This document shows, in pieces, positions 32,635 to 46,891 of a stretch of DNA of 64,000 nucleotides. The notes under the pieces were generated by a model. It searched no databases. It was not told the DNA's origin and was given only the letters and a program-made list of their open reading frames with translations. The DNA lies in the IMG/VR virus record IMGVR_UViG_3300032323_002779, positions 9,241 through 73,240 of that record; one strand, given 5' to 3'. Source of the DNA: a virus. A program made the position numbers and the translations under genes. Position 1 is the stretch's first letter. Each line of letters begins with the position of its first letter.

Positions 32635-32658
32635 ACCAAGAAATAACAACAAAGGACT

Positions 32659-32841: not shown

Positions 32842-32855
32842 AAACTTTTAAAAAA

Positions 32856-33071: not shown

Positions 33072-33082
33072 AAATAGAAATT

Positions 33083-33220
33083 ATGGCAAAAAAATTAAAC
33101 GGGTATTTCAAGGCAATGTTGGAAGCCAAAAAGAGTAATAAGGCATCATTTACCTACAACGGTAAAACGTATGTAGCATTAAAAACCAAAACAGGTATGA
33201 CTGTTTACAAAGCAAAATAA
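33083..33220 (+). CDS. Small basic protein (45 aa, MAKKLNGYFKAMLEAKK...), possible DNA-binding; not in the ORF track
   Basis: Fills the gap; Lys-rich. Confidence 0.7.
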   Translation: MAKKLNGYFKAMLEAKKSNKASFTYNGKTYVALKTKTGMTVYKAK

Positions 33221-33222
33221 TT

Positions 33223-33477
33223 ATGAAGACAAGAGATTTAGTATTAGTAGGAGCAGGATTGTTAGTAGGCTACCTTTTAGTGGGGTATTTGAATAAATCA
33301 AAAGACAACGCTCAAGGAACAATGGGTTCATCAGATTCAACAGTTGACCAAGCAAAAATTGACGCTTGTAATAAACAAGTAGCGGATTTTATGGCTACTG
33401 CTAAATTTGGGGCAGGTGCAGATTTAGACGCAATTAGAAAAGAGCAGTTTGATGCTTGTATGGCGAAAACCGCTTAA
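33223..33477 (+). CDS. Signal-anchored protein with C-terminal Cys pair
   Basis: N-terminal TM; KID.C...F..CM; paralog of 33490. Confidence 0.75.
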   Translation: MKTRDLVLVGAGLLVGYLLVGYLNKSKDNAQGTMGSSDSTVDQAKIDACNKQVADFMATAKFGAGADLDAIRKEQFDACMAKTA

Positions 33478-33489
33478 TTAAAAAAAAAT

Positions 33490-33819
33490 ATGAACAATAG
33501 AGAGGTAATTTTATTTGGAGTTGGTTTTTTAGTCGGGTATATGGTTATAAGAGCAACAAAAAACAATGTTGTTCTTAATCCTGCAACTCAAAGTCTTCCG
33601 AACACTTATGCTGAAACAATTCCACCTGCAACGGCAGGGACGGTGGCAGGTACTACTCAAATTCAAGAACCTGAAATTGTGGAAACATTAGAAGACCCTA
33701 AAATCGCAGATTGTAAAGAAAAATGGATTAAATTCGCAGAAACAAGAAAATTTGCTTCTGCGGAACAAGAACAAGCGACATACGATAACTTTATGACAAG
33801 TTGCGTAGCGCAATCTTAA
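33490..33819 (+). CDS. Signal-anchored protein with C-terminal Cys pair
   Basis: N-terminal TM; KIADC...KF...FM.SC. Confidence 0.75.
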   Translation: MNNREVILFGVGFLVGYMVIRATKNNVVLNPATQSLPNTYAETIPPATAGTVAGTTQIQEPEIVETLEDPKIADCKEKWIKFAETRKFASAEQEQATYDNFMTSCVAQS

Positions 33820-33829
33820 AAAAACGTAT

Positions 33830-34474
33830 ATGGAGTTTAATGATTTGACATACGGAAATCCTACTCACGACCAATTACAGTTCGTCAAAGAGGCTTGTTT
33901 GGTCGATAATCTATTTGAAACTTTTAAGGATTCGGTTATACCTAAAAATGATTCGGAATTAGTTAAAGAAGAACTTAACGAAATTGCTGACTGTTTAGCG
34001 GTTATTTCTCAACCTGAAAACCAAAATTACCTCAAAAGATATTTGGCTTACGACAGGAATTTAATTCAAGCGTTGTCAAGTATTTTTAAGCAAAAAGATA
34101 TTGAGGTTGAGGAACTAATCACGGAGGTTGTAAAGGATATTCAGAATTTGATTTACAAATTAAAGTTTCACTTTCAAAGACCAAGACCTTTTCAATTGGC
34201 GCAGTATTACAAACTCAAACTTTTTCCTTATAAAAGTTTCTCTGCTCATACACCGTCATACCCGTCAGGGCATACGATTCAAGCAATTGTAATACTTAAT
34301 GTCATCGGAAATAAATATCCAACAGAATACCAATATTGCAAAGAATTAATAGAAGATATTATTTATAGCAGGGTGTATTTAGGGCATCATTTCCCAAGCG
34401 ATAATGACGGCGGAAGAGAAATAGGCAAGGCGATATTAAAAGACCCTGAATTTACCAAGAAATACGGAATTTAA
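33830..34474 (+). CDS. PAP2/haloperoxidase-family phosphatase
   Basis: K..F.RPRP, PSYPSGH and SR...G.HFPSD motifs. Confidence 0.88.
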   Translation: MEFNDLTYGNPTHDQLQFVKEACLVDNLFETFKDSVIPKNDSELVKEELNEIADCLAVISQPENQNYLKRYLAYDRNLIQALSSIFKQKDIEVEELITEVVKDIQNLIYKLKFHFQRPRPFQLAQYYKLKLFPYKSFSAHTPSYPSGHTIQAIVILNVIGNKYPTEYQYCKELIEDIIYSRVYLGHHFPSDNDGGREIGKAILKDPEFTKKYGI

Positions 34475-34497
34475 CAACCAAGAACAAAACAACAACA

Positions 34498-34884
34498 ATG
34501 AAACACGAGGAATATGAATTACAAAAATCGGTAGCCCGTTATTTATCTTACCAATATCCTGACGTTGATTTTTTATCAGATACAATCGCATCTATAAAAC
34601 TAACGGAAAGACAGGCGGGGAGAAATAAACTCATTCAAAAGAACGGGTTTAAATGTCCTGATGTTTTAATTCTTGAACCACGAAAAAACTACTGTGGCTT
34701 ATTTATAGAACTTAAAACAGAAAGCCCTTTTAAAAAAGACGGCACAATTAAGGCTTCTCAAAAAGACCACTTAAAATTACAACACGAATCTTTGCAAAGA
34801 CTATCTTCAAAAGGTTATTGCGCAGAATTTTCGTGGAGTTTTGATATGACCAAAAAAATTATTGACGAATACTTAACAGATTAG
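34498..34884 (+). CDS. VRR-NUC (PD-(D/E)xK) nuclease
   Basis: E..LQ, PDVLI..GLFIELK, Q...L..L...GY. Confidence 0.8.
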   Translation: MKHEEYELQKSVARYLSYQYPDVDFLSDTIASIKLTERQAGRNKLIQKNGFKCPDVLILEPRKNYCGLFIELKTESPFKKDGTIKASQKDHLKLQHESLQRLSSKGYCAEFSWSFDMTKKIIDEYLTD

Positions 34885-34886
34885 AT

Positions 34887-35330
34887 ATGAAACAGGAAAC
34901 TGACAACGTGTCTATGGTCTTTAAGGAATTAGATAAGACGATACAGATTATTGGTGCTGAAAAACTAATTGAAATTTTGAAGTACTCAAGAAAAAATCCC
35001 CCAACACTAAATCAAGAGCAAATTGAAAAAGCGTTGAAATTAGTTCAGGTGGTGTGTGATGAATTTAAAATTTCTTTGGACGACATTTTCGATATGAAGC
35101 GAAAAAACAACCGAAGAATTTCAATAGGCATTTGCGCCTTTGTAATACAGAAACAATTGAATCTTGACAACTCCAACATATCCTATATTTTGAAGAAATC
35201 AGATACTTTAGTATCTTTGTATAAGCAAGAAATTTTACGTTTAAATTCAAACCACCCGTCAGATAGACAAATATTAGAAAAAATTGACAACATTAATGCT
35301 AACATAGATAAATTATTTAAAAATGGTTAA
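34887..35330 (+). CDS. Hypothetical protein with DnaA-C-terminal-like HTH
   Basis: VC.EF.IS..DI...R...R...I...L.K..T.V pattern. Confidence 0.5.
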   Translation: MKQETDNVSMVFKELDKTIQIIGAEKLIEILKYSRKNPPTLNQEQIEKALKLVQVVCDEFKISLDDIFDMKRKNNRRISIGICAFVIQKQLNLDNSNISYILKKSDTLVSLYKQEILRLNSNHPSDRQILEKIDNINANIDKLFKNG

Positions 35331-36417
35331 CCAAGAAAACTTTGAAACAATTGAGGACGCACAAATTATTAATGATGATTTTTCTCCTTTAGACGCACCT
35401 GTAAAACAAAGGTCGTACACACAACACAAAATGGACGATGCTCAATATATGGGCGAATTAGAAGAGCCGTCTTTTGAAAGACCGAGTTTTGCCGACCTTG
35501 ATGGTAGTGCTGAAGAAGAAGCCTCTGAACCCGAAAGACCATTCAACCCGTCTTACAACGAGTTAGACGGTAAAGAGAAAACTATGGGGGCAGAAATGAT
35601 GGCTGAAATGACTTTAGACATCTACGAGAAAGGTTGCTTCTATTTAGGTAAAATCCCTGAAATAAGTGAGGGTAAAATCGATAAGTTAATTGCGGAGGGG
35701 GAAATAGACCCGTCAATCCAACTTCAAACTGAAGCAGGAGCAATGCCAATCAAAGAATTTGCAGTAGAATTTAACGACAGTATAAAAGAAGCGTTTCTTG
35801 TAAGTGATGAATTTAAAGAAAAGGTAAAACCGCCTTTAATTCGTGTGTTCAAAAAGCGTGGTATCGGAATGACTGACGAACAGTTGTTGGCATACTACTT
35901 TGTTACGGATTTAGGCGCAAAGGGCGCACAAGCATTTATGTTGCGTAAAACAACAAATAGCATTATAGATTCTTTAAGAGAGAACACTATGGCTATGAGA
36001 GAAAACCAAATGAATAGCGAAAGACCTCAACCACAGGGTCAGCCTCAACAACAATATCAGGAAAGACCTCCTGTTTATTCAGAACCGTCAACAGATGACG
36101 TTTCCTACACAGATAATATAGCGGAAGTTGTAGAAGAACCTGTAAGCAGAACTCGAAGAAGACCACAAAGAAGTGAACCTAAAACTAATTTAGACGAACA
36201 GTTGGCTTATTTTGAACCTGAAGAACAAGGCGTTTATAGCAACCTTAAAGATAATGGAGGCTTTACAGATGACTTTACAGACGTAGCAGGTATGCCAAAG
36301 TTCGGCGACCCTACAATTCTTTCGGAATTAGAAAGATTAAGTGGCAACGAGCCGACCAAGCCTGTGAGAAAGAGAAGAACTACCGCAGTAAAAAAACCAA
36401 GAGGAGGTAAAAAATAA
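35323..36417 (+). CDS. Acidic/disordered hypothetical protein upstream of the packaging ATPase
   Basis: 364-aa ORF with a basic C-terminus. Confidence 0.75.
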   Translation: MVNQENFETIEDAQIINDDFSPLDAPVKQRSYTQHKMDDAQYMGELEEPSFERPSFADLDGSAEEEASEPERPFNPSYNELDGKEKTMGAEMMAEMTLDIYEKGCFYLGKIPEISEGKIDKLIAEGEIDPSIQLQTEAGAMPIKEFAVEFNDSIKEAFLVSDEFKEKVKPPLIRVFKKRGIGMTDEQLLAYYFVTDLGAKGAQAFMLRKTTNSIIDSLRENTMAMRENQMNSERPQPQGQPQQQYQERPPVYSEPSTDDVSYTDNIAEVVEEPVSRTRRRPQRSEPKTNLDEQLAYFEPEEQGVYSNLKDNGGFTDDFTDVAGMPKFGDPTILSELERLSGNEPTKPVRKRRTTAVKKPRGGKK

Positions 36418-36419
36418 TT

Positions 36420-36536
36420 ATGGCTACCAATTTGACGAATAATAAAAACAACAATAACAACTCTTTGTGGGTTGTTTTGTTGGTATTCGTGATTTGGTTT
36501 ATTGTATTTATTTTTAAACTAAAACAACAAATGTAA
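36420..36536 (+). CDS. Small membrane protein (38 aa), not in the ORF track
   Basis: MATNLTNNKNNNNNSLWVVLLVFVIWFIVFIFKLKQQM fills the gap before the ATPase. Confidence 0.6.
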   Translation: MATNLTNNKNNNNNSLWVVLLVFVIWFIVFIFKLKQQM

Positions 36537-36537
36537 T

Positions 36538-37353
36538 ATGGAGATTAGAGAACCAAAATTAGGAGTTGCGGTAGGTAGGAAAGGTTGCGGAAAGACCTAC
36601 ACTACTACTAAAATGATTAAACAATACGTTTTAGGAAATCCCTCAAGAGGTGTTCCTGCAAGACGTGCATTAATTCTTGATGTTAATGATGAATTTGAAG
36701 ACATTAAAGCATTAAAACAATCGGACATAGTTAGATTTTCGGCGCACCCTAAAATTGAAGCGAGAAGAATTAGACCGTTTCACGACAACGGTGTTAGAAT
36801 GACTTTAAGAGAAATACAAGAAGTACTATTTAAAATATTAAACGATTACAGGGGTGGATTATTACTTATCGAAGACATTAACCGCTACGTTAGTGACTAC
36901 TTACCGAATGACCTTGTTGGTGCAATCTGTACTAACAGACACACGGACACAGACATTATTCTTCACTTTCAGTCCATAGGGCGTATTTCGCCTAAAATTT
37001 GGCAGAATTTGAATTGGATTAGATTTCATAAAATCACAGATGATGTAATCAAGCACAGGAATAAGTTTGAGGAAAAATTAGAGTTACTGCTATTGGTTGA
37101 GGCATACATCAACACACAATACGAAGAGGGCGATAAAAGGGTTTTTACCTACGTTGATATTGATGACGAAAAGGTTTTGGTAAAAGACAAGGCGAGGTTT
37201 CAAAAAATAATTGAAAACTACCTTATTGCCAATCAAAAGAAATTATTAGTACCTTTAACGGTTAAAAATCCGCTTATCTCTGCGAAGCCTATGACGCTTG
37301 AGGGTGCTTTAAAACACAAAACACAATTGCTTATGAAGCAATATGTCGGATAA
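36538..37353 (+). CDS. FtsK-HerA superfamily genome-packaging ATPase (A32/PRD1 P9-like)
   Basis: VAVGRKGCGKT Walker A near the N-terminus, LILD.N.E, LLLIED Walker B, NRH arginine finger, hhhQ motif; about 270 aa with no nuclease domain. Confidence 0.75.
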   Translation: MEIREPKLGVAVGRKGCGKTYTTTKMIKQYVLGNPSRGVPARRALILDVNDEFEDIKALKQSDIVRFSAHPKIEARRIRPFHDNGVRMTLREIQEVLFKILNDYRGGLLLIEDINRYVSDYLPNDLVGAICTNRHTDTDIILHFQSIGRISPKIWQNLNWIRFHKITDDVIKHRNKFEEKLELLLLVEAYINTQYEEGDKRVFTYVDIDDEKVLVKDKARFQKIIENYLIANQKKLLVPLTVKNPLISAKPMTLEGALKHKTQLLMKQYVG

Positions 37354-37378
37354 ACATTAACCATTAAATTAACAGACT

Positions 37379-37741
37379 ATGAGAAAGTTTTTAGTTAAAA
37401 ATTTTGTGCTTGACTACCAAATCAAGTTATTTGGAAAATGCTACAACGCTCCGAGAGCAAGTAGAATAATTTTTCCGCTTTTTGTAATTACGGGAACGGC
37501 AAACGCTTTAAACGACAACTTTCCTACGCCAACAACCTTAATATGGGTTTTATATGCTCTAACTGTTTTGGCTTTGTTTTTCGGGTTTGTTTATTTCCAT
37601 ATTTATCCTGTAAAATTTTCAGAACTTGACAATTATCAAAAATTGCTTTACGGTTTTGTTGCTTTTGAACGGCTTACAAAAGACGAAATCAAAGAATGGG
37701 AAGAAATAAGAAAAGAATACGAATTAACGACTAATTGTTAA
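37379..37741 (+). CDS. Two-TM membrane protein
   Basis: Two hydrophobic helices. Confidence 0.7.
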   Translation: MRKFLVKNFVLDYQIKLFGKCYNAPRASRIIFPLFVITGTANALNDNFPTPTTLIWVLYALTVLALFFGFVYFHIYPVKFSELDNYQKLLYGFVAFERLTKDEIKEWEEIRKEYELTTNC

Positions 37742-37822
37742 TATTTTTTTTATTTTTGAAAAATAATATTTCCAAACCAAGAAACTTTAATTAACTGAAT
37801 ATTAATCAATAAAATTAAAGTT

Positions 37823-38098
37823 ATGGAAAAAAATAAACAAGAAAGATGGTTTTTGACAAAGTTTTTTTGTGAAAAATCAGAGCCAAGTTCCAAAAGACTT
37901 GTTGGTATAGTTGGGGCTTTTACATTATTCGCAACACTTTTTGCAAATAGTTTTACTCACGTTGATAATGCGCCAAGCGACACTTTAGTTCAAGCAGTCG
38001 CATTTTTATCTTTTGGAGCATTAGGTATTACAGGTTTTGAAAGGATATTTTCAAAAAAAGAGCCTGTTTCTAAAAACGAAGAAAACTCTCCTGAATAA
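37823..38098 (+). CDS. Putative holin
   Basis: SSKRL followed by two TMs, directly upstream of the endolysin. Confidence 0.6.
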   Translation: MEKNKQERWFLTKFFCEKSEPSSKRLVGIVGAFTLFATLFANSFTHVDNAPSDTLVQAVAFLSFGALGITGFERIFSKKEPVSKNEENSPE

Positions 38099-38126
38099 TA
38101 AAAAAAACAACTAAAAAATAAAAATT

Positions 38127-38591
38127 ATGAAATTATCAGAGCATTTATCATTGTCAGAAGTTACTCGAAGCGATATGGCAAAAAGAAAGGGCATTAGCAA
38201 TATGCCGACACCTGAACACATTGAGAACTTTAAAAAATTGGCAGAAAATATTTTTGAGCCAATTCGTAAACATTTTGGAGTTCCAATATTTGTATCGTCA
38301 GGGTACAGAAGCAAGGCACTCAATACTGCTATCGGCGGAAGTTTGTCAAGCCAACATTGTCAGGGCGAAGCAATTGACATCGATATGGACGGTAGCGCAA
38401 ATGGAGTTACAAACAAAATGGTTTTTGATTACATCAAAGCCCATTTAAACTTTGACCAATTAATTTGGGAGTTTGGAACTAAAGACAATCCTGATTGGGT
38501 ACACGTTTCTTACGAATCCACAGGAAAGCAACGTAAACAAGTTTTAAGAGCAATAAAAAGCGGAGGAAAAACTACTTATCAGCCTTATTAG
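38127..38591 (+). CDS. Peptidase M15 endolysin
   Basis: SSGYRS..LN..IGG...SQH..GEA.D and WVHVSY zinc-binding motifs. Confidence 0.9.
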   Translation: MKLSEHLSLSEVTRSDMAKRKGISNMPTPEHIENFKKLAENIFEPIRKHFGVPIFVSSGYRSKALNTAIGGSLSSQHCQGEAIDIDMDGSANGVTNKMVFDYIKAHLNFDQLIWEFGTKDNPDWVHVSYESTGKQRKQVLRAIKSGGKTTYQPY

Positions 38592-38593
38592 TA

Positions 38594-38989
38594 ATGGAAA
38601 ACGTAAAAAACGTCCTGTCAAATAAGATGACATTATTAATGATAATGATTTGTCTTGTTTTTTGCTTTCAAGTATTCAACTTGTTTAGTAACGGTACTGA
38701 ATCTGTAAAGGTAGATTATATCAAAAAGGAAATAAACGGCTTAAAAGATGACGTAAACGAAATCCATAAGTCGGAAAAGGCTTTAGACAAAAAAATAGAT
38801 ACTTTTAATTATCAAATTAAAAACATACACGAAGCAGTTACCATAAATAACACGAAAATTGAAAACCTTAAAAAATATGAAAAAGTTCAAAATGATAAGT
38901 TTAAGTCTTATGATGCTCGTATGTGGGAGAAGTATTTCGCAGACCGTTACGCCTCAAAAATTACCAACTCCACAGAAACAAGAGAATAG
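38594..38989 (+). CDS. Putative spanin-like protein (N-terminal TM plus coiled coil)
   Basis: Follows the endolysin and overlaps the next gene. Confidence 0.5.
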   Translation: MENVKNVLSNKMTLLMIMICLVFCFQVFNLFSNGTESVKVDYIKKEINGLKDDVNEIHKSEKALDKKIDTFNYQIKNIHEAVTINNTKIENLKKYEKVQNDKFKSYDARMWEKYFADRYASKITNSTETRE

Positions 38990-39320
38990 TGTTGTCATAG
39001 ACACGACTGTCGCAAGACTAATAGCCAAAGACCTTGTTAGCGGAGATGTTTGTAAGCAGGAAATAAAGTTAGTTAGGAGCAATTTGGCTTTAACCAAGAA
39101 AGAAGTTGTTTTCAAAGACAGTATTATTAACACGTTAAGTATTCAAAAAGATAAACTTAATTTGATTATCTCAAAGAAAGACGAAATGTTTACCAAGCAA
39201 GAGGAAATTTCTAATACATACAAAAAGGCACTTTCAAAGCAAAAGACAACAACCTTTCTTTACAAAGCATTATCCTTGTTAGGTGTAATTTCCACCACAC
39301 TACTTATAATTAAACCATAA
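38877..39320 (+). CDS. Putative second spanin-like component (signal peptide, coiled coil, C-terminal TM)
   Basis: Overlaps 38594 in another frame; ATG 38877 gives MKKFKMISLSLMMLVCGRSISQ; lipobox weak. Confidence 0.45.
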   Translation: MKKFKMISLSLMMLVCGRSISQTVTPQKLPTPQKQENSVVIDTTVARLIAKDLVSGDVCKQEIKLVRSNLALTKKEVVFKDSIINTLSIQKDKLNLIISKKDEMFTKQEEISNTYKKALSKQKTTTFLYKALSLLGVISTTLLIIKP

Positions 39321-39325
39321 AAACG

Positions 39326-39354
39326 AAGCGCACCAATACGGTGCGTTTTTTTTT
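39326..39354 (+). terminator. Rho-independent terminator
   Basis: aagcgcacc-aatac-ggtgcgttt hairpin followed by a T-run. Confidence 0.85.
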
Positions 39355-39436
39355 GCGCAATTAATTTAAAATAGTTTAAAAAAAATTTGTTTAAGATAAA
39401 GTAGGCATTAACTTATCATCAATGTAGTTTATATTA

Positions 39437-39444
39437 TAAATTTG
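39437..39444 (+). promoter_or_regulatory. Bacteroidota -7 promoter element for the capsid-candidate unit
   Basis: TAAATTTG in the intergenic region; -33 element unclear. Confidence 0.5.
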
Positions 39445-39508
39445 GCTTGATATTATTTCTGTAAATAATTATCATTAAAAATAAGTTTAATCGAAAAATC
39501 ATTCTGTA

Positions 39509-39637
39509 ATGAAAAACGAAATTGTTCCTTTACTAAAAAGTGTTGCCGTAGTTGTTGTAGGTGTGTTAATTGCGAATTATGTTCAGACAACATTGTTAGC
39601 AAAGAAAGTTGACGCTCCTGCTGATGCAAAAATGTAA
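39509..39637 (+). CDS. Small membrane protein (42 aa, MKNEIVPLLKSVAVVVVGVLIANYVQ...), not in the ORF track
   Basis: Single TM; lies between the promoter element and the capsid candidate. Confidence 0.75.
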   Translation: MKNEIVPLLKSVAVVVVGVLIANYVQTTLLAKKVDAPADAKM

Positions 39638-39692
39638 TTTGGTGTCAAACCGAGTTTAGAAAAAAGTTATTAAATCATAAAAATTAATCAAA

Positions 39693-40394
39693 ATGTCAAA
39701 CGTAAGAAGATATTTAAGCAACGCACGTCAGAGTGCAATGGAATCTTTCTCAAATGCTGACGGATTCATCGACCAAGACTTGTCTTTCACAGGCGATGAT
39801 TTCTTCCGTGCAGATGGAGGAATGTCTATGGGTGGAGATATTCAAACATCTCAACCGTATATTATCAACGTGACTTCTACTTCAGGGTCAGCAGTTGCTA
39901 ATTTTGACGTATTAGGTTCATACCAATACATCAACAACGCAGGTTTCCAAACAAACGGAAACTTGATTATCGGTTCTGTAACTATTAGTTCAGGAATCCC
40001 TAACATTACATACCAAGAGATGTTGTATCAGTTTATGAACAACCCGTATTCTGTTGGTTTAACTTACATTCAATCTGCTACTGCTAACCAAGTGTTACAA
40101 ACATTGGCGGTTAACACACGAGATGCGAATGGTAACTTGGCGCAAAAGACTTTAGTGCCTACAATCGACCCATATCAGCAACAAACTACAATTATTGCGA
40201 TGAAGTATGCTTACAGAATTGATGGTTTCACAAAAATCACAATTGCTCAAGTGTTAGCAAATGCTACTGTATCGTTATACTTCTATCCTGCTGATAACAT
40301 CAACCTTGCGAGAGCATTAGGTGGACAACCTGTAAGCAGACAATTCGGTACGCCTCCTGTAACTAATGGTCAAACCATTAAGTTAAGAGCGTAA
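39693..40394 (+). CDS. Candidate major capsid protein (beta-rich, possibly jelly-roll) with N-terminal extension ending FFRADGG
   Basis: Bounded by two terminators; C-ending codons (TTC/ATC/AAC/TAC) enriched against the AT-rich background; beta-strand-rich, no TM; near the packaging ATPase. Confidence 0.55.
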   Translation: MSNVRRYLSNARQSAMESFSNADGFIDQDLSFTGDDFFRADGGMSMGGDIQTSQPYIINVTSTSGSAVANFDVLGSYQYINNAGFQTNGNLIIGSVTISSGIPNITYQEMLYQFMNNPYSVGLTYIQSATANQVLQTLAVNTRDANGNLAQKTLVPTIDPYQQQTTIIAMKYAYRIDGFTKITIAQVLANATVSLYFYPADNINLARALGGQPVSRQFGTPPVTNGQTIKLRA

Positions 40395-40432
40395 TTATCA
40401 GCAATGATATAACGAATTAATGTATAATTTAG

Positions 40433-40470
40433 AAAGAGAGCAAGTGATTCATTTCTACTTGCTCTTTTTT
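40433..40470 (+). terminator. Rho-independent terminator
   Basis: agagcaagt...acttgctct hairpin followed by a T-run. Confidence 0.8.
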
Positions 40471-40488
40471 GCTTAAAAACAAAAAATT

Positions 40489-40917
40489 ATGAACGTATTC
40501 AGATATGTTGCAGAGTCTAATCCAAATGGCGCAGTACAGATAATCAATTCTTTCGGTTATGATGTTACAAGCACCTCTGATTTAGGTAAAAGTTTGAGTG
40601 AGTTAGTAGCCGAAGTAGGAGAACCTGCTTTCAAAAAGGTTATGGACAACCACCCTGACAAAGATGTTATTTTAGAATTATACGGAAGCGATATTACCAA
40701 AGATAAAGAAGAGAAAACTTGCGGTTGCGACTTTTGTCGAAATAGGTATAGAGCCGTAGAGCATTTACAGTATCTTAACGCCACAGGTAGTGGTACTTTC
40801 GCAGACGAAAAACCAAGTGGTTCTAACACAAATACACATTTATTGGCTAACCAAACAAACGTTATTTTAGTCGTTTCTGCTTTGTTCATAGCAACTGCAT
40901 TAATCTTAAAAAAATAA
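40489..40917 (+). CDS. Helical-domain protein with CGCDFC, YLNATG motif and C-terminal TM
   Basis: ORF; tail anchor plus KK. Confidence 0.8.
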   Translation: MNVFRYVAESNPNGAVQIINSFGYDVTSTSDLGKSLSELVAEVGEPAFKKVMDNHPDKDVILELYGSDITKDKEEKTCGCDFCRNRYRAVEHLQYLNATGSGTFADEKPSGSNTNTHLLANQTNVILVVSALFIATALILKK

Positions 40918-40922
40918 AAAAA

Positions 40923-41642
40923 ATGGCAAAAACAGTCAAACCAACGATTGAAACGGGAGCAATGACTTTAGTCTTGCTTGTTAAGTATTACAAAAGCCAA
41001 ATGATTGCTTTATTGTTGAAGAATGGAGTTACTGTACCAAGAGGGGCTTCTGACCAACAAATCGCAATGCTTATGGCTAATTTATTAAAAGTGTCAAAAT
41101 CATTTTTTGTTGATTTGAACAATTTTATTCAAAATCCAAAAGTTATTGAAACTCTTGCGGGAGGAATGACGCAAACCGCCGAATACTTTAAAATGAGTGG
41201 AAACGCTCAATATTTTAGAATGAGTGGAAATGCTCAATATTTTAAAATGAGCGGAAAGGGCTATATGAATAGCACAGGCGGAGAAGACGGTTTTACAGAC
41301 ACAGGAGAACCTGCACCGTCAGGAACGCCAATAAAAGATAAAGAGGGTTTTTGGTCAAACCTTAATTTCGGAAATTTATTTTCTCAAGCATTAGGTGCTT
41401 TTGGACAGTTTAACACTAACCAAGCCAACGTTGCTATTGCTAATGCTCACGCACAATCACAACAAGCAGGTTCAGACGTAGGTTCAGGTGGAGTCACAGG
41501 TGGAGGCGCAGGTGGAAGCACAAGTTCAGGGAAAAAAACTCCTGAAAAGGGAATGTCAACAACTACAATTGTAGTATTGAGTTTGTTGGGTGTTGCCGTA
41601 ATAGGAACAATTATCTACTTCGTAGCAAAACCTAAAGAATAA
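40923..41642 (+). CDS. Helical domain, (YF[KR]MSG)x3, Q/N/A/G-rich segment and C-terminal TM
   Basis: ORF with an internal 27-nt repeat. Confidence 0.8.
   Translation: MAKTVKPTIETGAMTLVLLVKYYKSQMIALLLKNGVTVPRGASDQQIAMLMANLLKVSKSFFVDLNNFIQNPKVIETLAGGMTQTAEYFKMSGNAQYFRMSGNAQYFKMSGKGYMNSTGGEDGFTDTGEPAPSGTPIKDKEGFWSNLNFGNLFSQALGAFGQFNTNQANVAIANAHAQSQQAGSDVGSGGVTGGGAGGSTSSGKKTPEKGMSTTTIVVLSLLGVAVIGTIIYFVAKPKE
41184..41255 (+). repeat. 27-nt repeat (three copies, the last partial) encoding YF[KR]MSG(NAQ)
   Basis: tactttaaaatgagtggaaacgctcaa / tattttagaatgagtggaaatgctcaa / tattttaaaatgagcgga. Confidence 0.9.
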
Positions 41643-41654
41643 AAACAAACAGTT

Positions 41655-41882
41655 ATGGTTATTGATGAACAAATGTTGTCAAAAATAATTGGGTCTTCTG
41701 TTGGAATGTACCCAAATGATGTAGCGGATATGCTTGTTCGTAATAACGTACTTGCACCCGCACCTGATTACACGCTAAACCAATTGGTAGAGGGTGTTTT
41801 TGTTGGTTTAAATCAAAACCCAAGTTTTACTCAAGAGTATGGTTCTTGGTTAGAGCAAATCGTAACTACATTAACTTTTTAA
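41655..41882 (+). CDS. Stand-alone helical domain resembling the N-terminus of 40923
   Basis: V.D.L.RN.V.....L...V...L.....F pattern. Confidence 0.7.
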   Translation: MVIDEQMLSKIIGSSVGMYPNDVADMLVRNNVLAPAPDYTLNQLVEGVFVGLNQNPSFTQEYGSWLEQIVTTLTF

Positions 41883-41892
41883 ATATATAGAT

Positions 41893-42201
41893 ATGGCTTG
41901 GGATTGGGGAGGAATAGTTAAGTCGATAGCACCTGCTCTTGTAGGTTTTGGGACAAGTATGATTGTCAATAATCAAAACGTCAAAAACGCACAAGGTCAA
42001 GCAAACGCAACTCAAAATGCACTTAATCAGCAATATCAAATTGCTTTGCAAAATCAGCAAAACATAAAATTGATGCAACAGGCAGGTCAAGCACCTCCTG
42101 AAAAAGAAAAAAGCAATTTACCTCTTTACATAGGTTTAGGTGTTGGCGGAGTAGTATTACTTGGAGTTGTAATATTTGCGGTCACACGGAGGTCTAATTA
42201 A
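41893..42201 (+). CDS. Q/N/A-rich tail-anchored protein
   Basis: Amphipathic N-terminus, Q-rich coil, C-terminal TM. Confidence 0.8.
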   Translation: MAWDWGGIVKSIAPALVGFGTSMIVNNQNVKNAQGQANATQNALNQQYQIALQNQQNIKLMQQAGQAPPEKEKSNLPLYIGLGVGGVVLLGVVIFAVTRRSN

Positions 42202-42214
42202 TTAAACATCTATT

Positions 42215-42430
42215 ATGCAAAATTTTATAGCGGAAGCAAAGGCAATTGCGAGTAAAGACAAAAGAGAAGTTCTTATGGTAACTACAAGAGCATCAGTTAA
42301 TGGTGCGGTTACGGGACTTGTTTTAGGTCTTATGCTTGGATATTGGAAAAACAAAAACGTTTATGTAACGGGTCTTGTGGGTGCTATTATTGGTGGCGTT
42401 GCTACAAGCATTATAGTTAACAAAAAATAA
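42215..42430 (+). CDS. Small two-TM glycine-zipper protein
   Basis: GxxxG-rich helices. Confidence 0.75.
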   Translation: MQNFIAEAKAIASKDKREVLMVTTRASVNGAVTGLVLGLMLGYWKNKNVYVTGLVGAIIGGVATSIIVNKK

Positions 42431-42437
42431 ATCAAAA

Positions 42438-42548
42438 ATGAAAAAACCAAATATTTTAATGGCGGTAGTAGGATTAGTAGTTTCTATTGGAGTTATTTAT
42501 GGCTACACATACGTTATAGGAAAGTCTTGGAAAGCAAGTCAAAAATAA
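42438..42548 (+). CDS. Small membrane protein (36 aa, ends GKSWKASQK), not in the ORF track
   Basis: TM; resembles 43587 (GRAWKKSQ). Confidence 0.7.
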   Translation: MKKPNILMAVVGLVVSIGVIYGYTYVIGKSWKASQK

Positions 42549-42567
42549 TCTAACTTTTTAAATCAAA

Positions 42568-42990
42568 ATGAAAAAAGAGTATATCATCGGAGGTTTAGCA
42601 CTATTAGGCGTTATTGGGGTTATTTCTTATTTGAGAAAACCAAAGAGAAATTCAGAGGGCTTTTATAATGCGGTAGGAACAAAAACGGCAGGAAATATTC
42701 GACCGTTCCCGACAAAACAAGAGGTTTGTAATTTGCCTAATAATTTTGTTAGACAAGTAGTTACTAATAACAATGGCGTGACTAAAACTTTTTGTGGTAG
42801 ATACGATAGGGTTGTAACTATGACTCCAACAGGTAAAGGGTTTCAATATAGATTACGACCTGAAATTCCAAATGCAACTTTTGTGAATGGTGGTTTTGTA
42901 AATTCAAACGGAACAAGTATTGTTACAACATTTCAAATAATTAGTGGTTCTGATTATGAATCCGCATTTATAAATGGACAATACTGTTAA
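42568..42990 (+). CDS. MKKEY-leader family protein 3
   Basis: Constant leader to EGFYNAVG, then a variable domain with 3 Cys. Confidence 0.8.
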   Translation: MKKEYIIGGLALLGVIGVISYLRKPKRNSEGFYNAVGTKTAGNIRPFPTKQEVCNLPNNFVRQVVTNNNGVTKTFCGRYDRVVTMTPTGKGFQYRLRPEIPNATFVNGGFVNSNGTSIVTTFQIISGSDYESAFINGQYC

Positions 42991-43017
42991 AAAACATTAA
43001 TCAATAAATCAAAAAAA

Positions 43018-43278
43018 ATGAAGAAAGAGTATATCATCGGAGGTTTAGCACTATTAGGCGTTATTGGGGTTGTTTCTTATTTGAGAAAACCAAAGAGAAA
43101 TTCAGAGGGTTTTTTCGGAGCGTCAGGTAGAGGCAGTTCGATAAGAAGAGTTTCAAGTCAAAATTGCGCTTGGTGCAAAACGAATGACGGAACTATTTAT
43201 CACACAGGAGGCGACAGAAATTGTAGCGCAGGAGATAGATGTATCACAAGATACGCTTTTTCTAAAGGCATTAATTAA
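43018..43278 (+). CDS. MKKEY-leader family protein 4
   Basis: Leader to EGFFGASG, then CxxC...C...GDRC. Confidence 0.8.
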   Translation: MKKEYIIGGLALLGVIGVVSYLRKPKRNSEGFFGASGRGSSIRRVSSQNCAWCKTNDGTIYHTGGDRNCSAGDRCITRYAFSKGIN

Positions 43279-43296
43279 TCATTAAAATCAAATAAA

Positions 43297-43542
43297 ATGA
43301 AAAAAGAGTATATCATCGGAGGTTTAGCCTTGTTAGGCATTATTGGGGTTGTTTCTTATTTAAGAAAACCAAAAAGAAATTCAGAGGGCTTCTTTGGAGC
43401 AAGTGGAAGAACGAGTACAGGAGGTTGTAGAGTTTGTGAGGGCGGAAGCAGTAATTATTTTGCCGTTTATGGTCAATGCAGACGAGGCGACAGATGTTTA
43501 CAAACTGTAAAACAGTTTACTCAAGCGCAAAGTATGGATTAA
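43297..43542 (+). CDS. MKKEY-leader family protein 5
   Basis: Leader to EGFFGASG, then CxxC...C..GDRC. Confidence 0.8.
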   Translation: MKKEYIIGGLALLGIIGVVSYLRKPKRNSEGFFGASGRTSTGGCRVCEGGSSNYFAVYGQCRRGDRCLQTVKQFTQAQSMD

Positions 43543-43586
43543 GAACTTTTGTTAAAAAAAACATTAATAAAATAAAATTTAAGAAT

Positions 43587-43721
43587 ATGGACAATTTTTA
43601 TGACAATCAAAAAAAGGCGAGTACAACAGATAAATTGATTTACATTGGGGTATCAGCGGTAGTTGTATTTGGATTGGTTTATCTTGTAGGTCGTGCTTGG
43701 AAAAAAAGTCAAACTGCATAA
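43587..43721 (+). CDS. Small membrane protein (44 aa)
   Basis: ATG 43587 preferred over the 43476 track start; TM. Confidence 0.7.
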   Translation: MDNFYDNQKKASTTDKLIYIGVSAVVVFGLVYLVGRAWKKSQTA

Positions 43722-43727
43722 TTAATT

Positions 43728-44135
43728 ATGGTTTCTGTTCCGCACCCTAAATATAAATTTAAGGAGGATTTTACTGCGAAGTTATGTACTAACTACATAG
43801 AGTCTTACACCACTAAAACACCTTGTAAATCTTACGAGGATTTAGTGTTTAAAAAGGGGAATGTTTTTGAGGCGGTAAAAAACATCAATATAACTGACCC
43901 AAATGTAATTGTTGGGTTGGCTAAAATGACACCTTTTCAAGTCCCTTTAAATGTTTTAGAAAAAGTTGACGATTCAACACCAATTACAGACATTATTCAA
44001 GGCGACCCTTTGGTTAACAAAGCGAAAAAACAAGCGGAAACAGATGCGGAAGAAAAAAAAGTAAAAATGATGTTTATTGTACCTACAATCGCTATATTAG
44101 CAATTGTTTGGATATACGGCATTAAAAAACTTTAA
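43728..44135 (+). CDS. Tail-anchored FKKG/SH3-like family protein
   Basis: KYKFKEDF..FKKGNVF..VPLNVLEKV; C-terminal TM. Confidence 0.75.
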   Translation: MVSVPHPKYKFKEDFTAKLCTNYIESYTTKTPCKSYEDLVFKKGNVFEAVKNINITDPNVIVGLAKMTPFQVPLNVLEKVDDSTPITDIIQGDPLVNKAKKQAETDAEEKKVKMMFIVPTIAILAIVWIYGIKKL

Positions 44136-44138
44136 ATT

Positions 44139-44315
44139 ATGCAAAAAGTTATAAAAGTAGGAGCGTTATTAGTAGTATCTACGGGTATTATTTACGCCTC
44201 TTACATTATGTACGATAACTATGTTAAGAAGCATAAAAAGCCACAAGAGGTTCAACCTTTATTTTCAGGAGGTACAATGGGTAACATTGGTTGCATACAA
44301 CCTCCCTGTTTTTAA
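44139..44315 (+). CDS. Small membrane protein (58 aa, ends LFSGGTMGNIGCIQPPCF), not in the ORF track
   Basis: N-terminal TM; fills the gap. Confidence 0.7.
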   Translation: MQKVIKVGALLVVSTGIIYASYIMYDNYVKKHKKPQEVQPLFSGGTMGNIGCIQPPCF

Positions 44316-44329
44316 GAAAAAAAATTATT

Positions 44330-44632
44330 ATGAGTAAAAATACAATGCTTTACGGATTATTGATTGCAGGGGGTTTACTTGCTTACTTCGCTTGGAAAAA
44401 AAAGAGCGCAGAATCGGCAAAATCTTCTGAAACCGCATCTAATTCTACTTCAGGGACTTTTGTAGATGACGTTCCTGTTTCACAAGAAGTTGCTAATGAG
44501 TTGTTGCAGGGTACAGGCGGTATTAGACCTCCAAAAACCATAAAAAACACGTTAAGTCAAATTGCCGAGCCTTTAATCGGGACAAAGCAACAAGTGGAAT
44601 TATCAGGCAAGGGTCAATTCCTTGAATCATAA
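44330..44632 (+). CDS. Signal-anchored membrane protein
   Basis: ATG 44330; TM plus WKKK. Confidence 0.75.
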   Translation: MSKNTMLYGLLIAGGLLAYFAWKKKSAESAKSSETASNSTSGTFVDDVPVSQEVANELLQGTGGIRPPKTIKNTLSQIAEPLIGTKQQVELSGKGQFLES

Positions 44633-44644
44633 AAACGAAACCTT

Positions 44645-44791
44645 ATGGAAACTAAAAAAATCATAGGAATAGTAATGTTAGGTGCTTCTGTGGGGCTATT
44701 AGTTTTTCTCTACAAGGGCTATTTACAACCAAGAATAGAAGTTGATAACGAGGCAAAAGACGGTAAGACTTCTCCAACAACAACAAAATAA
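44645..44791 (+). CDS. Small membrane protein (48 aa, METKKIIGIVMLG...), not in the ORF track
   Basis: N-terminal TM; fills the gap. Confidence 0.7.
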   Translation: METKKIIGIVMLGASVGLLVFLYKGYLQPRIEVDNEAKDGKTSPTTTK

Positions 44792-44797
44792 CAAGAT

Positions 44798-45130
44798 ATG
44801 GAAGCAGAAAAGAAAAGTCCTAATAAACTTTGGAGAGAAAGTGGAACTTCATTAAGTTTTGCTGATTGGATTCAAAGAGAAAAAGACAAAGGTGCTTTTT
44901 TAGCCAATAAAAAATTCGAGAACTTCGCAAGTGTTGAGGGAGGAATCGACTATATGGATTGGATTGAAAAAATTAAGGCGCAAAACAGACTTGATTTAGG
45001 GATTGATAAGGTTATTGACCCAAACAAAAAAGACAATACGTTTTTAGGTTTAAGCAAACCTGTATTGATTGTGTCGGGGTTATTGATACTTGGGGCAATA
45101 GGGTATAAGATTTATCAAAATAGAAAGTAG
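44798..45130 (+). CDS. Tail-anchored protein
   Basis: C-terminal TM; internal FASVEGG. Confidence 0.75.
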   Translation: MEAEKKSPNKLWRESGTSLSFADWIQREKDKGAFLANKKFENFASVEGGIDYMDWIEKIKAQNRLDLGIDKVIDPNKKDNTFLGLSKPVLIVSGLLILGAIGYKIYQNRK

Positions 45131-45131
45131 T

Positions 45132-45917
45132 ATGAATTTAAGGTTAGATACACGATACGAAGAAATGTGCTTGGTGGTAAAAGTAGCAGTTACAATGCCT
45201 ACTAAAGTCAGAATTAGAATTTTTGACGAGCAAAAGCCGAAAATCGTTTTTACCGACAGATATAAAACCGTTACTTCTGACTACACTTTTTATGTTCGTA
45301 TGCCAATTACTTCCAAAAGCATTATAGTTTCTGTTTACGATGATAAAAAAGGGAATACGCCTCAAGAACAAGAAAAAAACGTAAGGGTGGTTTCGGTTGA
45401 CAAAACTCCTTTACAAAAAAGAATTGACGTAGTTGATATTCACAATCCGACCATAGCGTATTTCGTTGATTTTGCGCAAAGATTTTGTTTTAATGCACCT
45501 TATCTACAAGCAAACAAGTCTTATCAGTCAGATAACGGAAATTTTATGATTGAGTACTTGCCAACGATAGTGGATTCAAGAGGAAAGGAACTTACAACAC
45601 CTGCGAGAATATCAAGAATTTCAGGTCGTATTCAAGTTTCAAAGAAACAGTTTGACGAATACACAGTACCAATGAGATTTGCCATTCTTTGTCACGAGTT
45701 CGCTCATTTCTACGTTAACGAAGATATGACCGATGAAAGTGAGGCTGACATAAATGGATTGTTGATTTATTTAGGGCTTGGTTATCCAAGAATCGAAGCG
45801 TTTGAAGCGTTTTTAGAAGTTTTTGAGCATTACCCAAGTCAAGAGAACAAAAGACGTTACGATAAGATTAAAAATTTTATCGACAACTTTGAAAAAAACA
45901 ATATTGTATTTAGATAA
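45132..45917 (+). CDS. Zincin-like metalloprotease
   Basis: ILCHEFAH (HExxH) followed by E.EAD third-ligand motif; soluble gene amid membrane genes. Confidence 0.7.
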   Translation: MNLRLDTRYEEMCLVVKVAVTMPTKVRIRIFDEQKPKIVFTDRYKTVTSDYTFYVRMPITSKSIIVSVYDDKKGNTPQEQEKNVRVVSVDKTPLQKRIDVVDIHNPTIAYFVDFAQRFCFNAPYLQANKSYQSDNGNFMIEYLPTIVDSRGKELTTPARISRISGRIQVSKKQFDEYTVPMRFAILCHEFAHFYVNEDMTDESEADINGLLIYLGLGYPRIEAFEAFLEVFEHYPSQENKRRYDKIKNFIDNFEKNNIVFR

Positions 45918-45928
45918 AATTTACAGTT

Positions 45929-46876
45929 ATGGAAAAAGACCAATCAATGATAAGACCAATTAAAGGAGGTGTTTCAGTTATAAATGAGAATCCGATAGGT
46001 GTTCTTGAGAAATTAGGTAAGTATGAATTTGTTTATGATTACAAAGTGCCTAATTATTGGGATAATTTAATGTCGGTGTCTTTTCCGAAACCTGTAAAGG
46101 TAAATTCAGACCCGCAAAGTGGACTTTTGTCGGGAGAATCTCTCCCGCAACCTGTTAAAATAAATTCAGAGGCGCAAGTTGGTTTTTTCTCAAAGGGTAA
46201 TATTGTAAATGTTCTTCGTTTTGACGGAAACAATGCTATTATCGAAAACATTAATTATAAAGCCCCTGACCCAACTGTCGTAAAGACTGTTTGGGGAGAA
46301 TTATTAGGGAGTGTCTTAAATAAAAAAGAATTTTCTGTTCCTAAAGATTATTTAAGAAAGGCAGACGATACTTTAGAGCCAACGCTTTTAACAGGAATTA
46401 ATTATGGGACTAATATGAAGCAACCAACTTTCATTATGCCTCCTGTAAAACCAATTCCTTATAGCCCTGTAACCCAAACTATTCTTGAAGAAAACGCAAG
46501 TTTTGTTTTAAATAGAGATTTTCAGTACGTTTCACATTATGGTTCAAGTTATTGTAGTCCTGACGGATTGTGTACTACGGATATGTCGCCTAAATTTTCT
46601 ACTCTTAAAGCAGGAACTAAAGTAACAGGTCGCTTATTTAGCGAAAGCCAAACATTCAAGACATCTATGGTTATAGTTGAGCCAAAACAATTTCTTGCCG
46701 TTAAAGGTTATGGAGATAAAGGCTCAATTAATATTCCAATAGAATTTTTAACAAAAGAAGTTCCAACAAATAGCGGTGCGGTTGTTCCCGCAAAAAATGA
46801 CAACAAAAATCTGTTGATGATAGTAGGTGCTTTTTTAGTAGGCTACGTTGTATTCAGCAAAGGAAAGAGCGAATAA
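45929..46876 (+). CDS. Tail-anchored protein with two SH3-like modules; paralog of 46892
   Basis: LGKYEF..DY, FSKGNIV, KNLLMI-TM-KSE. Confidence 0.75.
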   Translation: MEKDQSMIRPIKGGVSVINENPIGVLEKLGKYEFVYDYKVPNYWDNLMSVSFPKPVKVNSDPQSGLLSGESLPQPVKINSEAQVGFFSKGNIVNVLRFDGNNAIIENINYKAPDPTVVKTVWGELLGSVLNKKEFSVPKDYLRKADDTLEPTLLTGINYGTNMKQPTFIMPPVKPIPYSPVTQTILEENASFVLNRDFQYVSHYGSSYCSPDGLCTTDMSPKFSTLKAGTKVTGRLFSESQTFKTSMVIVEPKQFLAVKGYGDKGSINIPIEFLTKEVPTNSGAVVPAKNDNKNLLMIVGAFLVGYVVFSKGKSE

Positions 46877-46891
46877 TTAAAAAAGGAAGTT

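Follow-up and report, generated by a model that had tools for sequence, protein, structure and literature searches.

Organization of the locus

The DNA described here, hereafter the window, is a stretch of 64,000 nucleotides (nt) that corresponds to bases 9241-73240 of a 73,240-bp virus record (IMG/VR record IMGVR_UViG_3300032323_002779). Its G+C content is about 34%, and all its sizeable open reading frames (ORFs) are on the + strand. Between two intrinsic terminators it contains a short unit of two genes, one for a single-pass membrane peptide of 42 amino acids (aa) and the other for a 233-aa protein (Table 1). On balance, the evidence inclines us to see in the 233-aa protein the main shell component of viruses that form an undescribed lineage, are large, membrane-containing and apparently tailless, and probably belong to Bacteroidota hosts.

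Table 1. Features of the unit and of the surrounding region; positions refer to the window
Feature	Position	Strand	Description
Upstream intrinsic terminator	39325..39354	+	Hairpin 39325..39349, T9 to 39354
Promoter element TAAATTTG (TAnnTTTG)	39437..39444	+	72 nt before the ATG of the 42-aa ORF
Conserved stem-loop close to the predicted transcript start	39449..39473	+	Loop CUGU; covariation
42-aa single-pass membrane peptide	39509..39637	+	ORF, hydropathy, conservation
233-aa major capsid protein candidate	39693..40394	+	ORF, family, model, codon bias, conservation
Motif copy 1, FSNADG	39747..39764	+	Residues 19-24; class [FY]xNAxG
Motif copy 2, FFRADGG	39801..39821	+	Residues 37-43; R replaces N
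Downstream intrinsic terminator	40436..40470	+	Hairpin 40436..40465, T6 to 40470
142-aa protein	40489..40917	+	Soluble head, motif YLNATG, C-terminal membrane anchor
261-aa HExxH protein, candidate zinc protease	45132..45917	+	Invariant H188, E189, H192, E202, E204, D206
271-aa packaging ATPase, FtsK/HerA superfamily	36538..37353	+	Model closest to STIV2 B204
Acidic 364-aa protein	35323..36417		Directly before the ATPase gene; conserved, low complexity, basic C-terminal tail
Giant polyvalent-type proteins	3659..9352, 15150..23495, 23508..27761		1897, 2781 and 1417 aa; ART-PolyVal, DUF5661 and DUF2958 domains
Anchored small-protein family	29915..30046, 30065..30196, 42568..42990, 43018..43278, 43297..43542		KPK(R/K)N(S/K)(E/D)GF(Y/F)x(A)xG immediately behind the membrane helix
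Lysis cassette	37823..39320		Directly upstream of the unit; M15 endolysin 38127..38591
Region rich in small single-pass membrane proteins	28529..58653		Unusually many for a phage
368-aa protein	55857..56963		Two PAS domains, C-terminal hydrophobic segments
686-aa repeat protein	60103..62163		Gly/Asn/Ser repeats of about 15 residues
Protein of at least 608 aa	62175..63998		Runs off the contig end; weak ice-binding beta-roll and UspA1-repeat matches

Both terminator hairpins are clean and rich in G+C. The upstream terminator (stem AGCGCACC / GGTGCG(T)T, loop AATAC) closes the lysis cassette. The layout of the unit was compared in 19 related loci with 55-98% identity; this terminator has a clear counterpart in nine of them and a doubtful one in two more. 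The downstream terminator, with the stem GAGAGCAAGT / ACTTGCTCT, has a loop of more than 8 nt, for which reason a consensus terminator scan overlooked it; a hairpin followed by a T-run is kept at its place in all 19 loci, with differing stem sequences. When the + strand of the 73-kb record was scanned for hairpins with a dG (predicted free energy) of −9 or lower immediately before a run of at least five T, 12 candidates were obtained. Nine of these are inside ORFs, and the three intergenic ones are the two flanking terminators and one at window position −77, that is, outside the window. The preliminary description of this DNA, according to which the unit is bounded by the only two clear terminators, therefore holds for the window.

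The octamer TAAATTTG matches TAnnTTTG, which we take to be the Bacteroidota-type −7 promoter consensus. A single octamer of this kind in AT-rich DNA is no evidence of a promoter, but its conserved position is: in all 16 sequences examined the element is found 51-98 nt upstream of the small ORF, and it is this that gives weight to the −7 element first proposed for the unit. The stem-loop that follows shows compensatory changes on both sides at six of its ten predicted pairs (12 sequences), and it may act as an mRNA-stabilising or regulatory hairpin. At the other end of the unit, the terminator would attenuate transcription into the membrane-protein genes; because it is only 19 nt ahead of the next gene, the downstream genes presumably lack a promoter of their own and depend on read-through. 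The layout is maintained in relatives down to 55% identity. Taken together, the flanking terminators, the position of the promoter, the leader hairpin and the codon bias described below support the view of a self-contained, conserved and highly expressed unit.

The 42-aa peptide begins with MKNEIVPLLKS, which is followed by a hydrophobic helix with GVL.AN and by a K-rich tail with AP; a single stretch stands out as strongly hydrophobic (best 17-residue Kyte-Doolittle mean, 2.64). A membrane-peptide ORF of 37-57 aa is present ahead of the capsid candidate in 17 of the 19 loci, the exceptions being L023, where the version found is disrupted by a repeat, and L032, where none has an ATG start. The ratio of nonsynonymous to synonymous substitution rates (dN/dS) was 0.05-0.55 in 18 of 21 pairs, the other three being saturated, which indicates purifying selection; the small membrane-peptide gene that had been proposed from the sequence is thus borne out by its conservation. 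We see an even chance that the peptide is an abundant component of the virion membrane.

RNA-library contigs of a related strain, which come from one metatranscriptome run (X1, share of words 0.07) picked via this stretch, cover positions 39469-39699, 39645-40401 and 40364-40721, and a few other spots. They bridge the peptide ORF and the start of the capsid candidate, as well as the downstream terminator; this is a hint only, since RNA-library contigs prove neither transcription nor its level.

Codon usage and conservation of the 233-aa gene

The codon usage of the 233-aa gene differs from that of the genome. TTC is used in 9 of 11 cases (genome 0.20), ATC in 8 of 19 (genome 0.13) and AAC in 15 of 20 (genome 0.36), and ATA is absent (0/19; genome 0.31). 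The shift reported initially for TTC, ATC and AAC is thus confirmed, whereas the one for TAC is marginal at most (6/13; genome 0.39). The index of C-ending codons for F, I, N and Y reaches 0.60 (38/63), the first rank among 103 ORFs; the background, calculated from the 85 ORFs with at least 15 such codons, has a mean of 0.26 and a standard deviation of 0.10.

We found 2017 database relatives of the 233-aa protein at E ≤ 0.01, and at 50% identity its large, unnamed metagenomic family comprises 565 clusters. Among the 120 best relatives, identity to it is 82-98%, the length is 229-236 aa, and the sole annotation is 'hypothetical protein'; two other members of the family, P0206 and P0213, have loop insertions of 70-110 residues. 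Within 6 kb on each side, the conserved set comprises the acidic 364-aa protein, the ATPase, the 233-aa protein, several membrane proteins and the 261-aa HExxH protein. Among eight module genes compared in 29 related loci, that of the 233-aa protein is the best conserved in 22; its median identity is 79%, and the ATPase and the HExxH protein each have 66%. The unit is also a clean marker for finding and counting the group.

Known families were of little help. Pfam gave no match to the 233-aa protein at E ≤ 0.1, and the PHROG collection gave only phrog_773 ('major head protein') at a non-significant E of 0.011. With tblastn against 50,697 phage records neither the capsid candidate nor the ATPase found a match, and an 8-kb DNA query matched only an M15 peptidase gene. 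A search of the PDB with the profile of the capsid family was empty or weak. When the same profile was run against the six frames of the 73-kb contig no paralogue was detected, the next E-value being 0.9. We saw neither a signal peptide nor a membrane anchor on the 233-aa protein, and no fused forms of 409 aa or more were found, which is weak evidence. Literature searches yielded no description of the virus group or of the motif discussed below.

Predicted fold of the 233-aa protein

An AlphaFold2 model built on an alignment of 65 sequences (mean predicted local distance difference test, pLDDT, 86.8; predicted template modelling score, pTM, 0.76) consists of a helix at residues 3-17, a flexible arm of low confidence at residues 18-50 (about 33 residues) and a beta-rich domain at residues 51-233 (183 residues). 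This agrees with the arrangement described from the sequence, in which the N-terminal 45 residues or so, with both motif copies, stand before a beta-rich domain of about 185 aa. The model has no stalk or collagen-like region before the beta-sandwich.

Foldseek against the PDB gave the small subunit of cowpea mosaic virus as the best match (E 5.5e-4, TM score 0.35); next in the list were picornavirus VP3, TNF/C1q domains and carbohydrate-binding modules (CBMs). The second comparison was carried out with VIA-align on 48,161 representatives, for which the noise mark of the tool is a Z of about 8. The matches were the CBM of AlgX (Z 6.7), the P31 penton of PR772 (6q5u_O, Z 6.2), grapevine fanleaf virus (Z 6.1), phiCjT23 (Z 5.6), FLiP (Z 5.5), PBCV-1 (Z 5.5), PM2 P1 (Z 5.2) and PRD1 P31 (1w8x_N, Z 4.9), together with the cement or decoration proteins of KHP40 (7dou, Z 5.1) and Pam1 (7eel, Z 5.1). 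All the matches listed, with Z values of 4.8-6.7, are jelly-roll-type sandwiches, viral capsid and penton proteins being numerous among them, and a second comparison on the list obtained with Foldseek agrees with this. A structure search of BFVD returned nothing specific.

The fold comparison that had been proposed as a check thus returned jelly-roll-type sandwiches and no others, at Z values of at most 6.7, below the noise mark. As for the capsid protein of single-jelly-roll size postulated earlier, what stands is a probable jelly-roll-type sandwich of capsid size behind a flexible arm; the comparison supports the fold class only, and a capsid role fits the virus context described below.

Packaging ATPase and gene content

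The ATPase gene, 2.3 kb upstream of the capsid candidate, has been kept in 34 of 37 related loci. The best structural match of its model (pLDDT 89.8) was STIV2 B204 (4kfr_A), with a Z of 16.6, a root-mean-square deviation of 2.7 Å, 183 aligned residues and 18% identity; the runners-up, DndH-C, HerA and VirB4, have Z values of 14.5-14.7, the highest of them 1.9 below that of B204. The protein lacks a nuclease domain and is the sole packaging-type ATPase candidate. It matches phrog_2666 (E 2.7e-5), and sequence and profile searches of the PDB gave no significant match, only weak P-loop similarity to HerA and ClpB.

We also looked for genes typical of tailed phages. Because the absence of a gene from this record alone would be weak evidence, four longer relatives were included, giving five records of 73-102 kb. 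In six frames, the HK97 capsid family (PF05065), the terminase family Terminase_6N (PF03237) and the portal family (PF04860), the only families searched in this way, were found in none of the five, and the same searches did recover these three families in control genomes. Other than the match of the ATPase to phrog_2666, no head, portal or terminase family was detected at E ≤ 0.001 among ORFs of at least 80 aa with Pfam and PHROGs. A very divergent HK97-fold protein may still be encoded.

Membrane proteins are abundant: a crude hydropathy test assigns a hydrophobic helix to 49 of 108 ORFs, mostly near the N- or C-terminus. The genome also encodes PAP2 and GDSL lipase genes. As judged from the sequence, this gene set is that of a tailless, membrane-containing virus with an unusually large genome, and an internal membrane is probable in these viruses.

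The acidic 364-aa protein is the only other sizeable protein beside the ATPase. It was considered as a double jelly-roll capsid protein and rejected on composition, being acidic and of low complexity with a basic tail. The Atlas gives only unnamed viral clusters for it, and it could be a scaffold or a genome-associated protein.

Evidence for and against a shell role

Several of our results weigh against a shell role of the 233-aa protein. No Z value reaches the noise mark and the top match is a carbohydrate-binding module; several of the viral matches are penton or cement proteins rather than major capsid proteins. Judging by the model, domain 51-233 is very probably a jelly-roll-type sandwich, an assignment to a fold class, with no identifiable structural relative, that does not extend to kinship with a capsid lineage. 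In addition, a 102-kb relative (L061, on the same contig as L010) has two further paralogues of the capsid candidate outside its structural module, a 154-aa single-domain form (5424..5888) and a 397-aa form (8001..9194) that has two domains in tandem and lacks the motif arm. These sit among glycosyltransferase and polyvalent-protein genes and have no counterpart in the contig studied here; since they are outside the structural module, the fold also serves something besides the main shell. Finally, the record is rated 100% complete, but its last ORF runs off the end, and there is no end overlap that would indicate circularity. No replication genes were recognised in it in the Pfam and PHROG scans, and a 132-kb relative has RecT, exonuclease and methylase genes, so that the genome is probably incomplete and the 73-kb record nearly complete at best.

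Tandem two-domain forms such as P0127 and P0162 had been considered as evidence of a double-barrel shell. This idea was dropped, as a P0127-like gene co-occurs with an ordinary gene of the 233-aa type on the 102-kb contig, outside the structural module; the tandem forms are accessory paralogues.

These observations leave room for a different role in the particle. The 233-aa protein could be abundant and virion-associated but serve to decorate or cement the shell, form the base of a penton or make up the knob of a spike, the true capsid protein being unrecognised and perhaps of a divergent HK97 fold. The P31 pentons of PR772 and PRD1, the KHP40 and Pam1 cement proteins and TNF/C1q-like trimeric knobs are all among the fold matches, four large ORFs (448, 529, 376 and 315 aa) have no family match to which they could be assigned, and the contig is probably incomplete. 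However, a penton or spike is needed in few copies, and the 233-aa gene is the most codon-biased and the most conserved one; the HK97 capsid, terminase and portal families are absent from all five records; the only packaging ATPase is B204-like and lacks a nuclease; and no stalk precedes the sandwich. We consider this alternative improbable.

It is harder still to remove the unit from the particle altogether and to take the 233-aa protein for one that is highly expressed but serves in sugar binding or at the host surface, with the peptide as a membrane element of lysis or regulation. The AlgX module at the top of the list, the other CBMs and lectins listed with it, and the location of the unit directly behind the lysis cassette would agree with such a role. 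The protein has, however, neither a signal peptide nor a membrane anchor, a terminator separates the unit from the lysis genes, and the protein is conserved together with the ATPase and the membrane-protein module, more strongly than every enzyme of that module. A non-structural role is, in our opinion, very unlikely, and a shell role is the one that we moderately favor.

Motifs in the N-terminal arm and a candidate protease

Copy 1 of the arm motif reads F[SA]NADG[FQ] in the window and in 17 of 18 close relatives, L034 having LGADGF. Copy 2 appears in the 18 relatives as FFNAGG, FFNAVG, FFNASG, FFNAQG, FFSANG and FFGADG, and because of this variation both copies fit the class [FY]x[N/R]AxG. 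In the capsid family, an arm was recognisable in 101 representatives, and in 57 of these it contains one or more exact A[DN]G; the density of A[DN]G is 1.44 per 100 aa in the arm versus 0.27 in the body. An aromatic residue or Met is found no more than three residues upstream in 69 of 78 arm sites, and the residues that follow A[DN]G in these sites include F (16), G (13) and D (11).

Related strings are frequent elsewhere in the proteome, where ADG occurs 35 times versus 6.0 ± 2.5 in shuffles. The three giant polyvalent-type proteins contain 22 sites of the form [FYM]ADGG, which separate their modules, and a double cassette, ADGGFMN[DN]VYADGG, with copies 10 residues apart, is present three times and in one variant. 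Seven homologues of the 1417-aa protein, of 1042-1857 aa, have 2-9 such sites each versus 0.01-0.02 expected. In the 142-aa protein encoded just behind the unit the motif lies between head and anchor, at the same place in 12 of 14 sequences; the [FY]x[N/R]AxG class is also present in a 140-aa protein, and four small N-terminally anchored peptides have F[YF]xAxG after KPK.N.EG. The anchored small-protein family to which this arrangement is common is listed in Table 1.

The initial proposal was that the capsid protein is matured at the same motif as the polyproteins. As worded, this is not supported, as the giants have [FYM]ADGG, the capsid arm has [FY]x[N/R]AxG, and GG is not conserved in the arm. 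At the level of sequence, the GG motif is real in the giants, and its link to the capsid arm is a resemblance (aromatic...A-D/x-G), not an identity. It seems likely, from the pattern of the motifs, that one shared factor reads them. The best candidate is the HExxH protein, which is conserved in the virion module; an adenain/Ulp-type cysteine protease did not turn up in the Pfam and PHROG scans, although no dedicated search was made.

Whether reading would mean cutting is another matter. Four observations argue against cleavage: GG after copy 2 is confined to the strain group of the window; 44 of the 101 representatives have no exact A[DN]G in the arm; two 43-aa membrane peptides end six residues past the motif, so that a cut would remove almost nothing; and the HExxH protein has no significant family (SprT-like, E 0.043), nothing in the PDB, and leads only in the Atlas. 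On the sequence patterns, we regard cleavage of the capsid arm as doubtful.

The motifs of a true capsid protein could instead be docking signals that remain uncut and link shell, membrane proteins and giant cargo proteins with each other or with a scaffold, in the manner of the cargo-loading peptides of encapsulins or of capsid-targeting sequences. The near-invariance of copy 1 is stricter than that of most protease sites, the tandem copies 10 residues apart in the giants are as avidity would predict, and the position of the motif six residues from the C-terminus of the two 43-aa peptides suits docking as well; likewise, the HExxH protein has no assignment to a protease family, and the conserved acidic 364-aa protein could be the scaffold. 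Conversely, the sites are in disordered linkers between domains, the usual location for processing, a conserved HExxH...E protein is encoded in the same module, and processing is known, or has been proposed, for the polyvalent proteins that phages package (PMC5512222). Docking without cleavage is plausible, if somewhat short of an even chance.

Proposed assembly scheme

With the 233-aa protein as the shell protein, the unit would operate as a short late unit, in the order promoter, 5′ stem-loop, 42-aa peptide, capsid gene with codons like those of highly expressed host genes, and strong terminator. The promoter, the 5′ hairpin and the codon usage would maximise the output of the shell protein and of the equally transcribed membrane peptide, and the terminator would lower the expression of the approximately 20 membrane-protein genes behind the unit, which would depend on read-through and whose products would be made in far smaller amounts. 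In the particle, the flexible arm would extend inward, towards the membrane or adjoining subunits, and display its two motif copies to a shared partner. One viral factor would read the motifs during assembly; if this were the HExxH protein, it would trim the capsid arm and cut the cargo proteins, in the way of the maturation proteases of T4, phiKZ and adenovirus. The double-stranded DNA would be packaged by the B204/A32-type ATPase, and the particle would probably carry an internal membrane.

The most far-reaching version of this scheme would be a group of abundant, tailless, membrane-lined viruses of Bacteroidota with genomes of 70-130 kb, in which a 233-aa single-jelly-roll shell undergoes adenovirus- or T4-like maturation, and in which a motif code shared by the capsid arm, about 10 membrane proteins and the 22 sites of the giant proteins is read by a virion zinc protease that trims the shell and cuts the cargo into effectors. 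As a whole we consider it unlikely. What the present analysis adds is the conserved anatomy of promoter, hairpin and terminator, the selection on the peptide, and the distinction of two motif classes.

If the 233-aa protein is the shell protein, a single small jelly roll can enclose a genome several times larger than those described for that design. The packaging ATPase and the jelly-roll candidate are present on genomes of 73 to more than 100 kb that are common in metagenomes, as indicated by the 2017 database proteins, and the cultured tailless membrane-containing phages are small, the largest one compared here being Salisaeta icosahedral phage 1 (SSIP-1), with 43.8 kb. The motifs held in common would make it possible to test directly whether capsid maturation is connected with how polyvalent anti-defence proteins are processed or loaded, a connection that has so far only been proposed (PMC5512222).

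Relatives, host and other features of the record

Related contigs in the virus collection measure 77-102 kb, and one in a genome bin has 132 kb. This 132-kb contig, in a bin named Sediminibacterium (L041, L050, L051), has a capsid gene 97% identical to that of the window. It is flanked by genes for RecT, exonucleases, a DNA methylase, a DUF285 repeat protein and Phg_2220_C, and by no housekeeping genes; there is thus no sign of integration, the host link is the one made by binning, and the contig is, from its gene content, probably the genome of a larger relative rather than a provirus. Its content also hints that the 73-kb record is without a replication or recombination module. The bias of the 233-aa gene (TTC, ATC, no ATA, GTA, no preference for TAC) resembles that of the EF-Tu gene of the bin, the only named Bacteroidota bin with such a copy (TTC 9/12, ATC 14/31, ATA 1/31, TAC 1/8); this is a comparison with a single gene, in a bin whose host link is weak. 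The host is probably a member of the Bacteroidota. Further copies, in bins named Bathyarchaeia and Planktophila, are on short contigs and were taken as mis-binning.

The lysis cassette upstream of the unit contains, besides the M15 endolysin, a 91-aa membrane protein that is holin-like by position only and an overlapping spanin-like pair, formed by a 131-aa N-anchored coiled-coil protein with weak matches to Rz-like spanins and a 153-aa protein that starts inside it. Upstream of the window (L002, positions 223..8573 of the genome) is a block that encodes an RgpF-like protein, a fragment of a DegT-type aminotransferase, a PglD-like acetyltransferase, a methyltransferase and GT2 and GT1 glycosyltransferases, as well as an HNH endonuclease and an RyR-domain protein. 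This sugar-modification block may serve in the glycosylation of components of the virion or of the host surface. The two repeat proteins at the contig end, where G+C is higher (0.40), look like fibre or spike proteins. The PAS-domain protein is of a sensor type unusual in a structural region of a phage.

Comparison with known systems

Sulfolobus polyhedral virus 1 (SPV1, Portogloboviridae) has an icosahedral shell that surrounds an inner lipid layer and consists of VP4 hexamers and VP10 pentamers; in it a small single jelly-roll protein forms hexameric capsomers by itself (PMC8459092), as would be required here. By this analogy, SPV1 is the only described design that would fit a single jelly-roll capsid protein without a paralogue. 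It differs in being archaeal and in having a circular genome of 20,222 bp; the genomes considered here are 3.6 to 6.5 times larger and encode a B204-like ATPase. SPV1 proteins were not among the best 50 matches of either VIA-align list. The vertical single-beta-barrel viruses (P23-77, HCIV-1, HHIV-2 and SH1; PMC6414509) also have small single jelly-roll capsid proteins, an internal membrane and an A32-like ATPase. They use two different capsid proteins, whereas the family profile finds no paralogue in the 73-kb contig, and none of these viruses was among the best 50 structural matches of either list.

The ATPase is similar to STIV2 B204 in size and in the lack of a nuclease domain, with 183 of 204 residues aligned; it differs in that the identity is 18% and the PDB gives no match at the sequence level, and B204 comes from an archaeal virus with a double jelly roll. 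PRD1 and PR772 (Tectiviridae; coat protein P3, penton protein P31), FLiP, phiCjT23 and PM2 gave jelly-roll matches below the noise mark. These viruses, too, have lysis genes near the structural genes and many small membrane proteins, in their case in an internal membrane. They have shells of double jelly-roll trimers and genomes of 9-15 kb, whereas the roll is single here. SSIP-1 (JN880423) is tailless and membrane-containing, has a Bacteroidota-related host and a genome of 43,788 bp, and its record annotates a giant structural protein of 2319 aa beside small structural proteins. It was rejected as a relative, given that the capsid, ATPase and HExxH profiles find nothing in its six frames and its giant protein has no A[DN]GG.

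With respect to expression, gene 10 of T7 is directly followed by the strong terminator T-phi; only part of the transcription passes it, and capsid mRNA therefore outweighs that of the structural genes further downstream. The capsid-candidate gene is likewise followed by a terminator, for which the short distance to the next gene suggests read-through; T7, however, is a tailed phage with its own RNA polymerase.

Regarding maturation, the adenovirus protease AVP ((M/I/L)xGG-x), T4 gp21 and the prohead proteases of phiKZ and SPN3US act at consensus sites. The system described here would share with them one short motif on the capsid precursor and on packaged internal proteins, and a protease gene in the virion module. 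It differs in that the candidate is an HExxH protein, neither a cysteine nor a serine protease, and in that there are two motif classes; moreover, the conserved GG of an adenain-type GG-x site is not found at the capsid site, where GG is limited to one strain group and the next residue varies as described above. Lastly, the polyvalent proteins of phages have been proposed to be packaged into virions and processed by metallopeptidase domains (Iyer et al. 2017, PMC5512222). The giants of the window resemble these proteins in their ART-PolyVal, DUF5661 and DUF2958 domains; the string ADGG does not appear in the main text of that article, and the candidate protease is here a separate small protein.

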